Program-made: the position numbers and the translations under genes
Shown: positions 63 to 60,093 of the stretch, piece after piece
How the letters are laid out: every line of letters begins with the position of its first letter
Numbering within the stretch: the stretch's first letter is position 1
Source: a virus
Lineage: Duplodnaviria; Caudoviricetes
DNA: 64,000 bases
Strand: one strand, 5' to 3'
Virus record (IMG/VR): IMGVR_UViG_2910903598_000004
Span: 1 to 64,000 of that record
The notes under the pieces: model-generated
Told to the model about the DNA's origin: nothing
What the model saw: the letters and a program-made list of their open reading frames with translations, nothing else
Databases searched by the model: none

Positions 63-252
63 TAAAAAATGGCATAAAAAAAACAGACTTTTCGTCTGTT
101 AGATTCATTTTTATAAATAGCAAAACAGCATATATAATATTTATTGTTTTATTATTTATAATTTTAAGTTTCTTTATATTTTTTTTCTTAAAAAAGTCCA
201 TGCTATACTTGTCTTCATGAAATCTGATAAAAATACATTTATAGTATATCAT
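63..252 (-). promoter_or_regulatory. Conserved promoter-leader-terminator repeat, full copy 1
   Basis: TGnTATACT -10, TGTATTTTTATCAGATT..GGACTTTTTT module, CAGAC/GTCTG hairpin + T tract, then AAGGAG. Confidence 0.8.
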
Positions 253-421
253 AAATAAAAATAACATGCACATATTTTATATAACATTTCATATAATTTT
301 CAATATTTTTTGTTTAATTGGTATTATATGGAAATAAATGGTTTGTTTTTTTATATTATTACTGCTATACTAAAATTATAAAGATAATCATGTATATAAA
401 TTTTAAACAGGGAGGTGTATT

Positions 422-1492
422 ATGTTTGATTATGATGTATCTACATTAAAAGATTTTACTTTCAGCTCTATATATGACGTATTTGCTCTAATTGCTCAAA
501 ATTATCCAGTACGATCCAGATATGATATAGAATCTTTTGAATATAAATCAGATTACTTAGCTGAGGGAAAAAGCTATAAAATTGTTCCGAAATCATTTTT
601 TGAAAAATATCAAAAAGAATATGAAGATGAAAAAGAAAAATTTTTCAAGGATTATTATGGTACTCAAGGAGCTTCTGCGATCTATTCTCCATGCGATATA
701 TTAACAATAAAATATAATAAACTTTTAAACAACAGAAAAGAAATTATTGAAACAAAAGGCATTACTAGTAGAAAATATATGGATAAAGAAATATCGAATC
801 ATAAATTTGATTTAATAAAAGATGTGAATTTTACAAATAGTTATTTTGCTTATGTTCCTACTACGGAACTTGCCCCACTTCCATTGTATCGTCGCTTAAA
901 ATTAGACCCTTATGAAATGGCTACGACTATAATTTCACTAATTATTGAAGCTTCTGATTTCCCATTAAAATTAACTTTAGAATTTGAAAAAGACAGTGTA
1001 CGCTACAAAAGATATGTTCACCTATTTGACGCACTAAATGATATTCAAGATCAGCTAGAATGTTATATGGCACTTGAAGGTATTACAATGACAAGGCTTG
1101 CAAAAGAAATAGGATTCCCAAAATATGCATATAACAATATATTTGCAAGGATTATAAAATTTAATGATTTTAAACAATTAACAGATATGGTTGGGGCTAA
1201 AATTAAAATTACATTTACACCACAAATAATTAAAACATATAGTTCGTGCAAATTAATGTTTGAAAAAATGTTAAGTAATATTGATGATATGGTATTTAAA
1301 AATGACCAATGTAAAGAATCAATAAAATATCAATTATTCTGTAGTATTATTAGAGAAGCTCCAGAACTAGCAATTGTAGAATCATTAATAGAATTAGAAC
1401 AATTACGCCGATCATCTAATTTAGCACTTTTTAGTCAAAAAGATGTCGATATCTTTGAAGAATCAAAAAAAAAGGAGGCTGACAGCAAATAA
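422..1492 (+). CDS. Hypothetical protein with XRE-like HTH segment; putative regulator
   Basis: GGGAGG RBS; 'LEGITMTRLAKEIGFP..YNN..FNDFKQLTDMVGAKIKITF' resembles an XRE HTH; only long plus-strand gene. Confidence 0.5.
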   Translation: MFDYDVSTLKDFTFSSIYDVFALIAQNYPVRSRYDIESFEYKSDYLAEGKSYKIVPKSFFEKYQKEYEDEKEKFFKDYYGTQGASAIYSPCDILTIKYNKLLNNRKEIIETKGITSRKYMDKEISNHKFDLIKDVNFTNSYFAYVPTTELAPLPLYRRLKLDPYEMATTIISLIIEASDFPLKLTLEFEKDSVRYKRYVHLFDALNDIQDQLECYMALEGITMTRLAKEIGFPKYAYNNIFARIIKFNDFKQLTDMVGAKIKITFTPQIIKTYSSCKLMFEKMLSNIDDMVFKNDQCKESIKYQLFCSIIREAPELAIVESLIELEQLRRSSNLALFSQKDVDIFEESKKKEADSK

Positions 1493-1511
1493 GCTGCCAA
1501 CCTCCTTTTTT
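1469..1511. terminator. Bidirectional intrinsic terminator
   Basis: aaaaggaggctgacagc..gctgccaacctcctttt between convergent genes. Confidence 0.75.
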
Positions 1512-2052
1512 ACATACCTGCCATAAAATTCATTGCTTTTGCAAGAGTGTCTTTATCCAGGATTGGTTCTGTAGAATCTTTATCTTCTACATCTACATCT
1601 TCACCAGAAGATTCCTCAACCTTTTTAATTGGTTCTGGAATTTTAACTTCTTCTGGCTCAGGCGTTACTGGATTTATCACTTCTTCTACAACTTCATTTG
1701 TGGATTCTTTTTGTTCCGTCTGTGCAATTTCTACATTTTGTTTCGTTTGCACAACAGATTCTTCCTGTTTTTTCTTCTTCCTTTTTTCTTTAACTATTGG
1801 AGTGGAAACTGTATTCGTATTGATTGGAAAATTATCAAAGCTATTTAACAGTTCATTTCCACGTCTTTCGATTTTATCAGTCTGCATTTTTCTTTCTATC
1901 ATTTCACCAATGATGATGGATTTAGCAAGAAATCTGCTTAATGATTTCCCTCGCTTCATTTCCAAAATATCATAAGCTAATTTCTGATCAGGATCGGATA
2001 AATCGAAACCAATATTTTTTCTGATTTGATTTTTTTCTGCCAATAAGATCAC
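1510..2052 (-). CDS. ParR-like partition adaptor
   Basis: Directly downstream of parM; N-terminal ribbon-helix-helix-like segment, acidic tail ending in a short helix. Confidence 0.55.
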   Translation of the reverse strand: MILLAEKNQIRKNIGFDLSDPDQKLAYDILEMKRGKSLSRFLAKSIIIGEMIERKMQTDKIERRGNELLNSFDNFPINTNTVSTPIVKEKRKKKKQEESVVQTKQNVEIAQTEQKESTNEVVEEVINPVTPEPEEVKIPEPIKKVEESSGEDVDVEDKDSTEPILDKDTLAKAMNFMAGM

Positions 2053-2072
2053 AACCTTTACAAAAAATATGC

Positions 2073-3029
2073 TTACTGTTTATTCATAAGGGATTTCGCA
2101 CTTTTATACAAAATCTGTGCCCCTTTTGCATTTGCATGAACATCTTCAATGAAAATGACTTTACCTAATAAACCTTCTTCCTGTAACTGCAAGATGTATG
2201 GTTTAAAAATTAAAGATGCACCACCGACAAAAACACTTGTATACATTTTTAAATCAATTTTATCTTCGATAAACGTTTTAATACCTCGTTTCAAATACTG
2301 TAATGCCATAGTATCTAACGTATCTAATACTTTTGTTTGAATCGCAGCTAAATTTGATGGCAATGTTCGATTTTTGATCAGATTATCAATATCATCTTCT
2401 CTAAGATGAAGATCATATTCTGATACAATATAATTACTAAACTCATTATAAAATGGAATGATTCCCAATTCTCTTGTATCCATGATATCTTTTTCAGGAT
2501 TTCCATTTCGTACAGAAAGATAATCCCATGTGAAACCACCGATATCATGTAACATGATCAACGGTTCTTCCTTAGTTAAATTGGAACGAGTATACAATGC
2601 AGCATGTCCCTGAATAAAAACAATCACATCTTTAAATGTAACAGACATCGGGTTATCATTAAACATGAAATTTACATGCTGACCTTTCATCATCATATAA
2701 TTTTTCAGATTTTCATGCTGAGTACGATAATGAGCCGGTGGAAGGCTGAGAAGTAACTCAACTTCGTAATTATCGCCTTTCAGGCCTCTTCGTTTGATTT
2801 CTTTCGCAATAGCCATTAAGGTTAAAATGAAAAAGCGATCATCTGTATGTTTATATCGTGTATACTCAATTCTGTGACTTCCTACGGTATAATACTTTCC
2901 TTCATACTGTATGCAATCATTTCTGAAAAATGTCGTAGATGGATTACTGTCATATGAATCCAGTCCTGTCAAAAATAATAACTCTGGTGTCTTAATATTT
3001 TTGTTTCCTAAATCTACGCTTACGATCAT
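2073..3029 (-). CDS. parM: ParM/StbA actin-like partition ATPase
   Basis: VDLGNKNIK, DIGGFTWD, FVGGAS, ANAKG actin-fold motifs. Confidence 0.88.
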   Translation of the reverse strand: MIVSVDLGNKNIKTPELLFLTGLDSYDSNPSTTFFRNDCIQYEGKYYTVGSHRIEYTRYKHTDDRFFILTLMAIAKEIKRRGLKGDNYEVELLLSLPPAHYRTQHENLKNYMMMKGQHVNFMFNDNPMSVTFKDVIVFIQGHAALYTRSNLTKEEPLIMLHDIGGFTWDYLSVRNGNPEKDIMDTRELGIIPFYNEFSNYIVSEYDLHLREDDIDNLIKNRTLPSNLAAIQTKVLDTLDTMALQYLKRGIKTFIEDKIDLKMYTSVFVGGASLIFKPYILQLQEEGLLGKVIFIEDVHANAKGAQILYKSAKSLMNKQ

Positions 3030-3054
3030 AATAAGCTCCTTTCTTTGTGTAAAA

Positions 3055-58805: not shown

Positions 58806-58819
58806 AATGTATTCCTTCC

Positions 58820-59299
58820 TTACCAATAATTTTGTCGTTTGACAATATCCTTGCAAATCATGCTTGCCAGAAAATCGTCATTTTCACATAACTCTTTCAA
58901 ATTTTCTCTTATATCATCATAAGATTTTGAAAATTCTTCGTAAGCATAGTCAATTATTTCTAATCGCTTTTCTAATGATTTGATAAACCTTTTTGTGCTT
59001 TCGATTTCTTCTGATACTTTTTGCTTAATTTCTTCCAAAGTATTTGGATTATCCTTATTACCACAATCAATATAATTTCTAAAATATTGATTTTTGGTAA
59101 ATTTTGTATCAACTTCAAGAATGTATCCTCGAAAAGATTCTTTCCTTTTATATGTTGCATTGGTGAAATTTTTTGACATGCTTTTAAAAGGGGTTCCATC
59201 TTTTTTCGTTAAATATGTGACATTTTCCCATGCTTCCAGTCTTGCTTTATTTTCTTCAATATAATCTTTCAAATCTCTTTTAATACTATTCAAACTCAT
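58820..59299 (-). CDS. Hypothetical protein
   Basis: RBS + ORF. Confidence 0.65.
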   Translation of the reverse strand: MSLNSIKRDLKDYIEENKARLEAWENVTYLTKKDGTPFKSMSKNFTNATYKRKESFRGYILEVDTKFTKNQYFRNYIDCGNKDNPNTLEEIKQKVSEEIESTKRFIKSLEKRLEIIDYAYEEFSKSYDDIRENLKELCENDDFLASMICKDIVKRQNYW

Positions 59300-59429
59300 A
59301 TTTATTGCCTGCCTTTCCTATGATTTTTTAATTTCAGTACGATAAAATTCTTTGATATATAAAAAGTACAAAAACAAATAATAATTTTTCATCTGTTTTT
59401 GTACCATATTAATATAATATATATCAAAA

Positions 59430-59669
59430 TTAAGCAGTTACAATCTGCCAAACATGAACCTCTTCTCCATTAATATAGAGAATAGCTTCTTCATTATCGC
59501 AGTGTGATGATTTCATCCATTCCGGATCAATACCGTTTGAAAACATTTCTTGATACTCAATCTTTCGTTCATATTCAAAATTAAGTTGCTTACAGGCTTC
59601 TTCTTTGGTGTTATATTTTCCAACAACATCAATAGAACATCCGTCTGTATGAATTAATAAAACTTTCAT
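59430..59669 (-). CDS. Small hypothetical protein
   Basis: Coupled to the upstream ORF. Confidence 0.6.
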   Translation of the reverse strand: MKVLLIHTDGCSIDVVGKYNTKEEACKQLNFEYERKIEYQEMFSNGIDPEWMKSSHCDNEEAILYINGEEVHVWQIVTA

Positions 59670-59902
59670 TAATTCATCTCCTTTCCTGATGAATTTACAT
59701 ATTCTTTATAAAATTTCATCAATTCATCTTCTGGCATCTGTTCAAGAGTTTCTTCAACTTTTGCATATAAATCCTCTTGATCATCATCTGGGCGATTCTC
59801 ACCAAAAAAATCAAAATAAACATAGTCACTGTTCATGCACTCCTGAATCATAGTGCATTTCAGGCTAATTAACATTTTATCAGTGAATTTTAATTTACAC
59901 AT
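59669..59902 (-). CDS. Small hypothetical protein
   Basis: AAGGAGG RBS after the leader. Confidence 0.6.
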   Translation of the reverse strand: MCKLKFTDKMLISLKCTMIQECMNSDYVYFDFFGENRPDDDQEDLYAKVEETLEQMPEDELMKFYKEYVNSSGKEMN

Positions 59903-59924
59903 TTTGTATTTCCTCCTTTCTTTT

Positions 59925-60093
59925 GTAAAAATAAAAATGGACATAAAAAGAAGCAGATACAAAATATCTACTTAAATTTATGCCCAAATGATTGGTTATG
60001 AAATTTCTATTGATTTTTTATCCTAAAAAAAGTTCAGAGTTTTTCCGTTAAAACTCCAAAGTCTAATAAAAAATACATTAGTATTATATCATA
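59925..60093 (-). promoter_or_regulatory. Leader repeat, full copy 12
   Basis: TGATATAAT -10 plus both modules. Confidence 0.85.

Follow-up and report, generated by a model that had tools for sequence, protein, structure and literature searches.

The element and its repeated units

The DNA analysed here (the window) comprises bases 1–64000 of the 119,963-bp IMG/VR record IMGVR_UViG_2910903598_000004 (G000), which is filed as a virus and has a GC content of 32%. Operons on its minus strand are headed by copies of one transcribed unit, in which a promoter is followed by a leader with two hairpins, H1 and H2, the second resembling a terminator, and then by a Shine-Dalgarno (SD) sequence and a start codon. 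These units are the subject of this study. The record is 97–99% identical to bases 90,945–206,955 of a 221,898-bp relative, G001 (116 kb shared), in which essentially all open reading frames (ORFs) lie on a single strand. The cargo of G001 includes a split type IV secretion system (T4SS) coupling protein, a VirB4/TraG-type ATPase, a C39-like wall hydrolase and surface proteins of the SpaA/Cna-B/TQ-ester LPXTG kind (adhesins), which together mark it as conjugative. No capsid or terminase genes were seen on the element. Judged by these genes, we read the 'virus' record as belonging to a ~200-kb conjugative element, either a plasmid or an integrative and conjugative element, from a low-GC Gram-positive-type gut bacterium. 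The closest VirB4-type proteins in PLSDB are from Oscillospiraceae plasmids at 37% identity; the Vescimonas plasmid pMM35_02, with a VirB4-like protein 37% identical, has the T4SS module in common while its remainder is housekeeping-like. Two relatives are classed as proviruses, and threonyl-tRNA synthetase and radical-SAM genes at one end of G001 may be host flank.

The units of G001 are found only between ~69 and 182 kb, a block of ~110 kb that precedes the T4SS block in the direction of transcription, and the T4SS and adhesin block itself contains none. Downstream of units are genes for two single-stranded DNA-binding proteins (SSBs), DNA methyltransferases, a 1607-aa methylase-SNF2 protein, YqaJ, RecD2, a primase, a ParB-like protein and DnaX, together with ArdA (in G001), a Ubl-conjugation set, a wall hydrolase and many proteins without known function. 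Gene sets of the anti-restriction, SSB and methylase type are typical of leading regions (PMC11541004). Searches for a relaxase with PF03389 and PF03432 gave no match and an origin of transfer was likewise not located, thus the placement in a leading region relies on gene content and orientation. On this basis the unit block likely holds establishment (leading-region-like) genes.

A covariance model was built from a MAFFT alignment of 15 copies, and the E values given below are from that model. An earlier note, made from the letters of the window, had placed twelve copies on the minus strand, and each of these was recovered there by the model with E values from 2e-5 to 6e-19. The record has another three full copies beyond the window (66698–66843, 74585–74723 and 88220–88359), giving 15 in total, and four near-identical relatives have 15–19 each, the maximum of 19 occurring in complete relatives. 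Mean column identity among the 15 aligned copies is 59%. The 17-mer TGTATTTTTATYAGAYT, allowing up to two mismatches, occurs eight times, always on the minus strand, against 0.41 expected, and CAGAY-loop-RTCTG hairpins number 21 on the coding strand where about two are expected. Copies are on the coding strand throughout bar one diverged unit of G001 (69081–69198, plus strand), which heads a gene for a 146-aa secreted protein; directly upstream of this unit is a GC-rich structured stretch, near an IS200/IS605 TnpA-TnpB pair. The units of the window, and one partial copy, are as follows.

63–257 (model span 63–237), minus strand: unit 1, with a TATGaTATACT promoter, 5' box, H1, linker with a 40-nt insert, H2 with a degenerate outer stem, and U tract; E 2e-5; the gene lies beyond the window edge.
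8647–8808 (model span 8647–8788), minus strand: unit 2, heading an operon of YqaJ exonuclease, RecD2 helicase, primase and ParB-like genes; E 1.7e-14.
18630–18783, minus strand: partial copy with the linker box AAATAGAATTTTAACC and an H2-type terminator, lacking promoter and H1, 25 nt before the next gene; E 0.0025.
18985–19143 (model span 18985–19123), minus strand: unit 3, heading a 79-aa ORF and then DUF1351 and ThiF/JAB/E2-like genes; E 2e-14.
22804–22958 (model span 22804–22938), minus strand: unit 4, the best score (E 5.8e-19), heading a DUF3268 gene after ~190 nt of extra leader.
23807–23964 (model span 23807–23944), minus strand: unit 5, heading a 224-aa ORF; E 3e-13.
25383–25541 (model span 25383–25521), minus strand: unit 6, with the H1 stem TTTAGAG/CTCTGAA, heading a 244-aa ORF; E 1.6e-14.
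30189–30343 (model span 30189–30323), minus strand: unit 7, with an H1 near-identical to that of unit 4; E 2.2e-17.
34733–34885 (model span 34733–34865), minus strand: unit 8, with the H1 stem TCACAG/CTGTGA and G·U pairs in the outer stem of H2, heading a DUF5688 gene; E 2.6e-13.
41489–41647 (model span 41489–41627), minus strand: unit 9, followed by two extra hairpins and then a 127-aa ORF; E 1.4e-16.
44728–44902 (model span 44728–44882), minus strand: unit 10, with the diverged 5' box TGTAATTAATTTATTAGATT, heading a 168-aa ORF and an 815-aa amidase/glucosaminidase; E 1.8e-9.
53756–53907 (model span 53756–53887), minus strand: unit 11, heading an 80-aa ORF; E 5.1e-14.
59932–60097 (model span 59932–60077), minus strand: unit 12, heading an operon with a DNA methyltransferase (56220–57158) and a PF24203 protein; E 1.6e-14.

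Anatomy of the unit and its promoter

The consensus order is TRTG-n-TATAAT, a gap of 6–7 nt, the 5' box TGTATTTTTATYAGAYT, the variable hairpin H1, ACTTTTTTT-AGA, an A-rich linker, H2, a T tract and AAGGAG. In the RNA, H1 is flanked by an invariant UUAUYAGAYU on its left and by ACUUUUUUU-AGA on its right, and is followed by a U tract. The A-rich linker is unpaired and carries AATAGAA and AACCA boxes. The consensus of H2 is GGYRYAAATT..RCAGAY-loop-RTCTGYTT.TTTTTRYRCC. Its U tract ends 1–15 nt before the SD sequence, and the start codon is found 12–29 nt past the T tract in most copies. Units are 132–175 nt long with a GC content of 19–30%. The order of modules given in the earlier note holds generally, except that the copies at 63, 8647 and 44728 have a weak ATAGAA..AACCA box or none and that extra leader precedes the start codon in those at 22804, 41489 and 63. 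In unit 4 this extra leader contains a third terminator with a CAGAC/GTCTG stem (22597–22617), after which the DUF3268 gene begins, and in unit 9 two hairpins with CAGAC/CAGAT stems, CCACAGACTGTAAAGGTCTGTGG and TTACAGATGTATTACATCTGCG, lie at ~41396–41450 within ~240 nt of extra leader before the ORF. The SD sequence of unit 4 has only a 3-codon ORF behind it (ATG AAA CAG TAG; window 22560–22800), ~130 nt before the third terminator, and this ORF may encode a leader peptide or serve as a decoy start.

An extended -10 promoter had been proposed from the sequence, and the motif, with TRTG one base ahead of a TATAAT-like hexamer, is that of a Gram-positive sigma-A promoter with a -16 extension and proved to be nearly confined to units. 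TRTGnTAHWHT is matched by 14 of the 15 units and the strict form, TRTGnTATAAT, by nine; in the 120-kb record the strict form occurs 11 times on the minus strand (nine at units, the two others intergenic) and once on the plus strand. No conserved -35 element was found across the aligned units. The 5' box is the most conserved segment of the unit and directly abuts the -10 element, with a TGTA-to-TTTTTAT spacing that varies by -1 to +3 nt among units. A palindrome over the -10 element of unit 4 was rejected as it is not conserved in other units.

RNA structure of the leader

H2 is a nested terminator of 16–19 pairs, with a folding energy of -17 to -27 kcal/mol in most copies and 6–8 U directly after the stem. 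Its inner hairpin carries a U8 of its own. H2 has the sequence features of an intrinsic (Rho-independent) terminator, namely a stable GC-containing hairpin and an immediate U tract. The fold energies and the U tract thus bear out the proposal that a strong intrinsic terminator, as predicted, stands between each promoter and its ribosome-binding site.

The fold of H2 was predicted by RNAalifold with compensatory changes. When 34 distinct sequences were aligned to the model, 94.5% of cells were paired against 87.7% in shuffles, 12 of the 19 pairs changed on both sides, and none of 500 shuffles reached any of the measures. An alignment fitted to the model favours structure; however, slid controls, in which pairing collapses to 39–55%, and the first, unfitted alignment agree with this result. 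For H1 the alignment of 22 distinct hairpins was anchored on the flanking motifs only (AGAY on the left, AC and a T run on the right), with no fitting to structure. Even so, pairing at the four basal positions is canonical in 22, 22, 22 and 21 of the 22 hairpins (87/88 cells) while the pair types change (U-A; C-G/U-A/U-G; C-G/U-G/A-U/G-U; C-G/U-A/A-U/G-U), and the sum of pairing over six positions is 117 compared to 87.8 ± 3.9 in shuffles. The compensatory changes cited in the earlier note, with stems that keep their pairing while the sequence drifts, are therefore real, and its view of a selected RNA structure is upheld by an H2 that beats shuffles and an H1 whose basal pairs covary. The H2 cells contain 52 G·U pairs as against nine A·C, an excess which indicates selection on the minus-strand transcript, as opposed to the other DNA strand or a cruciform. 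Compensatory changes and frequent G·U pairs are seen in both hairpins, in agreement with selection of the structure as RNA.

The copies fold alike into a 5' hairpin of 55–65 nt, ~25–30 unpaired nt and then H2. Most minimum free energy folds also contain a further stem, stem A, between the invariant 5' end and the A-rich stretch downstream of the H1 U tract, which is weakly better than composition-matched shuffles (mean z -0.97; p<0.05 in 5/23). Unit 5 has 3 nt inserted in its 5' box, and the 3' partner is correspondingly longer, which is suggestive only. It is possible that stem A is real. No known family had been recognised in this motif, and Rfam 15 likewise gave zero gathering-level matches in the window and none on units at E values up to 1 (22700–25700).

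Terminator-like hairpins within and between operons

Besides H2, other hairpins of the terminator type are placed around the units of the window.

25549–25590, minus strand: long perfect-stem terminator (19 pairs) ending the upstream operon before a unit promoter.
23022–23044, 30354–30395, 34892–34932, 41665–41690, 44921–44940 and 60136–60158, minus strand: similar operon-end terminators.
~22597–22617, 33450–33483, 35937–35975 and 53366–53400, minus strand: copies of the inner hairpin only, before genes.

A separate perfect-stem terminator (up to 19 pairs) is present at most 130 nt upstream of 9/15 units. About ten more terminator-like hairpins lie inside operons, 4–70 nt before the next start codon and without room for a promoter, so the genes downstream of them depend on read-through. 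The inner-hairpin terminator at 53366–53400, for example, directly precedes the gene that follows the 80-aa ORF of unit 11. Taken with the near-restriction of strict promoter motifs to units, these arrangements suggest that most transcription begins at a unit and has to get through H2 and later terminators, a situation served by processive antitermination systems in Gram-positive conjugative elements (PMC8191782, PMC11658703).

Distribution and gene neighbourhood of the units

Within IMG/VR, true units turned up in seven contigs, all of one lineage and with records of 200–222 kb among them, and Logan contigs of that lineage have them too. Large collections (IMG/VR and GTDB) were scanned by sequence patterns and not by the covariance model. 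Two such scans of IMG/VR returned mostly chance matches, and none of 10 pattern matches in GTDB species representatives was confirmed by the covariance model. Megablast found no close relatives in annotated phage and plasmid collections, and a blastn search of PLSDB with a unit gave no match.

Several features of the operons themselves were recorded. A 542-aa TnpB/Cas12f-like gene (OrfB_IS605 + TNB; window 26734–28362, minus strand) sits inside the unit 7 operon, and the segment 26621–28390 is missing from the blocks aligned to G001. A 300-nt direct repeat of 98% identity (window 24588–24887 and 29099–29398) falls within two paralogous 244-aa genes, both belonging to unit-headed operons, and looks like a recent cassette duplication or conversion. 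Matches to ThiF/E1, JAB and prokaryotic E2/RING-like proteins (window 12859–16142, minus strand) are in the unit 3 operon.

Comparison with known systems

The earlier note likened the units to establishment sequences of pLS20-family plasmids, and the element is indeed conjugative and the comparison apt. In that family conserved upstream sequences define establishment regulons (PMC8708921), which is the nearest concept in the literature. EGeRS2 of p576 and clade II pLS20-family plasmids consists of a strong promoter with dual heptamer operators TTATCCCnnTTATCCC bound by the ribbon-helix-helix (RHH) repressor Reg576, which one of the regulated operons encodes, and is present in four copies (PMC8708921). 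The units resemble it in having a strong sigma-A promoter within a conserved repeat before operons of variable, mostly unknown establishment genes. They differ in that their conserved part is transcribed, contains two covarying hairpins and a terminator, and is repeated 15–19 times; TTATCCCnnTTATCCC with up to two mismatches gave no match in the window. EGeRS1 of pLS20 is 420–750 bp long, GC-rich (51%) and multi-branched, lacks a constitutive sigma-A promoter and blocks read-through from upstream (PMC8708921). Like the units it is a structured repeat immediately upstream of the ribosome-binding site of establishment operons, whereas the units are 132–175 nt at 19–30% GC with a near-consensus promoter and two simple hairpins. 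The cassette thus shares the logic of EGeRS, in which a conserved upstream sequence marks an establishment regulon of many operons, but fails the defining features of both EGeRS1 and EGeRS2.

The put sequence of phage HK022 is a cis-acting processive antiterminator RNA. Among Gram-positive conjugative elements, cis-acting antiterminator RNAs that serve terminator-rich operons are conAn2, with the protein ConAn1 (PMC8191782), and canT of Tn916 (PMC11658703). All three share with the units a promoter-proximal structured RNA on a mobile element and terminators within long co-oriented operons, and antitermination by a promoter-proximal RNA of this type would explain why a terminator follows each promoter. 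Unlike the units, none of the three is present in more than two copies per element; the conAn2 and canT RNAs are also far longer (about 450 nt for canT), and conAn works only together with ConAn1 (Pfam pXO2-34, PF17362). The PF17362 profile had no match in G000, G001 or the further record G002, and none in any control genome either.

Two other structures of pLS20 can be compared with H2. In the zipper attenuator cATT, stem extension builds an antiterminator, which prevents a separate terminator further downstream from forming (PMC13401043). As in the units, its leader combines an imperfect long stem with a weak stem-loop upstream and an intrinsic terminator, and H2 also extends an inner hairpin, but in H2 it is the terminator that the extension makes complete, and folding predicts no structure that competes with it. 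TerR is a terminator whose long stem resists conAn antitermination (PMC10325885). H2 is built like TerR, with a stem of 15 bp or more that is GC-rich at both ends and AU-rich in the middle; however, TerR closes an operon whereas H2 lies between a promoter and its own genes.

Proposed terminator gating of establishment operons

With a probability of about 0.45, we consider the units to be terminator-gated leaders of an establishment regulon which depend on a common antitermination mechanism, probably a processive one. The observations are the copies themselves, their promoter motif, both selected hairpins, the terminator-like anatomy, the location of units in front of operons and the conjugative character of the element; termination, its relief and the relieving agent are proposed from them. 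In such a scheme host sigma-A RNA polymerase would initiate at the strong -16/-10 promoter, ~7 nt upstream of the invariant box, and make a leader of 132–175 nt containing H1, the unpaired linker and H2. By default most transcripts would end at H2, and some at the weaker H1 and its U tract, with the genes expressed only once the polymerase has become termination-resistant. The promoter-proximal part, made up of the 5' box, H1 and the linker, would be the licensing site, acting either as a cis-acting RNA in the manner of put, conAn2 and canT or, as with nut, as the binding site of a factor from the element or the host. Relief would probably be processive because more terminators, including promoter-less H2 copies, directly precede internal genes. 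A more specific form of this proposal is doubtful: that the 5' box, H1 and linker are a compact (~90-nt) self-licensing antiterminator RNA, present in 15–19 copies and working alone or with one small factor, so that a ~110-kb regulon is switched at termination.

A leader that switches by itself was also considered. It had been suggested, as a weak possibility, that the YAGAY of the first module competes for the RTCTG arm of H2. This found no support, since the one variable position gives a C x A mismatch in 8/30 distinct copies, with AGAC mostly accompanying ATCTG, and the AGA/UCU core is invariant and hence uninformative. An ACC/GGU mini-hairpin at the base of H2, which would explain the AACCA box, can form in 25 of 32 copies where 18.6 are expected, at -1.4 to -3.5 kcal/mol, and is not significant. 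Nor did a competing antiterminator fold emerge, as blocking the 3' arm of H2 leaves the 5' arm without a stable partner. The lack of a stable alternative fold, of covariation between YAGAY and RTCTG, and of more than a weak ACC/GGU hairpin means that the leader does not look like a self-contained riboswitch-type attenuator.

The missing antiterminator fold is one of several points that count against gating by antitermination. A NusG paralogue of the RfaH/LoaP type (NGN domain, PF02357) was sought in three records without a match, while controls match in 11/14 genomes, and no sigma factor, helix-turn-helix (HTH) or RHH protein was found by Pfam among the 97 small ORFs of the block, where a divergent regulator could be missed. 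If the long-stem resistance rule of TerR is general, H2 would be hard to bypass. The unit family is known from one element lineage, and all of the covariation comes from paralogous copies of this lineage, which are able to exchange sequence. A non-homologous leader before a topoisomerase gene beyond the window (G000 ~80,410–80,545, minus strand) has the same layout, consisting of the promoter TATGTTATAAT, a GGATTAT/ATAATCC hairpin, a CCCAGGA-type terminator with T9, and an SD sequence and ATG. This suggests that layout, and not a specific licensing sequence, may matter, and it fits constitutive or leaky attenuation about equally well.

The search for a trans-acting partner gave one lead. No N-like, arginine-rich protein stands out among the small proteins, and antisense partners of the boxes on the element amount to a chance match inside a coding region. 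The operon of unit 12 includes one of two paralogous genes for proteins of the family PF24203 (Phage_ProQ_C_like).

55291–55728, minus strand: PF24203 (Phage_ProQ_C_like) protein, one of two paralogues.

The second paralogue (G001 88839–89327, minus strand) is directly behind a promoter-less H2-type hairpin. The two are 39% identical to each other, with a Pfam match just above threshold, and belong to a family of small beta-barrel proteins common in phages; a homologue of 39% identity is encoded in a siphophage among small genes upstream of the terminase genes. A single-sequence structure model was poor, and an alignment-based model (pLDDT 77) had no significant PDB match. The PF24203 proteins are weak candidates for a leader-binding factor, and the sole RNA-related lead among the small proteins.

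Alternative explanations

Somewhat unlikely, and compatible with the other readings, is service of the cassettes as recombination junctions which supply homology for the swapping of gene modules between variants. When the record was compared with its 222-kb relative, six of 29 ends of synteny blocks were no more than 120 nt from a unit where chance predicts 1.3 (P about 0.001); units 4 and 7 have a near-identical H1, and unit 9 shares its H1 with that relative while H2 is different. Recombination covers the persistence and spread of the cassettes but not their covarying stems or the combination of promoter and terminator. The units might instead set constitutive expression and RNA stability with no switch, H1 being a 5' stabiliser against decay of the RNase J/Y type, and H2 and its promoter-less copies being leaky terminators or processing and stabiliser hairpins that fix expression ratios and insulate operons. 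H1 does begin a few nt from the likely start site, H2-type hairpins without H1 precede internal genes, and 6/15 units have no separate upstream terminator, so that H1 and H2 would also end the upstream operon. The unrelated topoisomerase leader and the failure to find a regulator point the same way. Such an arrangement would leave unexplained why the 17-nt 5' box is invariant and the unpaired linker boxes are conserved while the stems drift, and a hairpin of -20 kcal/mol with 7–8 U would be expected to terminate efficiently and waste a near-consensus promoter. The extended 5' stem, weakly above composition, also speaks against it, and we regard constitutive tuning as unlikely.

Control could also be exerted on the DNA as in EGeRS2 of p576. 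A repressor encoded by the element would bind the box at +1 to +17, and perhaps other boxes, as its operator, expression would surge in new transconjugants until enough repressor had built up, and the hairpins would be terminators or insulators only. The position and conservation of the 5' box, abutting the -10 element, would suit an operator, and strong promoters under repressor control are known to recur in front of establishment operons (PMC8708921). Yet the box is not palindromic, there is no conserved inverted repeat over the -10 element, the TGTA-TTTTTAT spacing varies, and neither the Reg576 motif in the window nor an RHH or HTH protein among the 97 small ORFs of the block was found, making this quite improbable, though control of DNA and RNA could coexist. 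It is more improbable still that the terminated transcripts of 130–175 nt are themselves the product, as small RNAs of one family acting in trans or sequestering a factor. A 5' hairpin, an unpaired seed-like linker with conserved boxes and a terminator are typical of a bacterial small RNA; however, every copy is directly before an SD sequence and start codon, and targets of the boxes on the element are not above chance. Most strongly disfavoured is a function in single-stranded DNA after transfer, as a Frpo-like single-strand promoter or a signal for priming of the complementary strand. The element enters recipients single-stranded, its co-oriented genes fit the transferred strand as template, and it has its own primase and SSB, but the -10 element is outside any conserved hairpin, which departs from Frpo and ssi sites, the excess of G·U over A·C shows pairing optimised for coding-strand RNA and not template DNA, and units are missing from half of the element.

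Implications for establishment in a new host

How the expression of anti-restriction, SSB, methylase and replication functions is timed once a conjugative element of Gram-positive gut bacteria has entered a new cell has been worked out in just a few Bacillus plasmids. As the cassette heads every operon of the ~110-kb block, it provides a sequence handle that delimits the regulon, within which dozens of genes of unknown function become candidate anti-defence genes. The units are also a candidate new RNA family for Rfam and a small RNA element for a possible new mechanism of antitermination or attenuation. If the leaders were self-licensing, only polymerases that had started at unit promoters would resist H2 and the intra-operon terminators, the establishment and anti-defence regulon would be controlled by termination and not initiation, and the units would be one sequence family within a wider, uncatalogued class of terminator-gated leaders in conjugative elements of gut Clostridia. 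Should one factor open the gate, establishment of the element would have a single control point.

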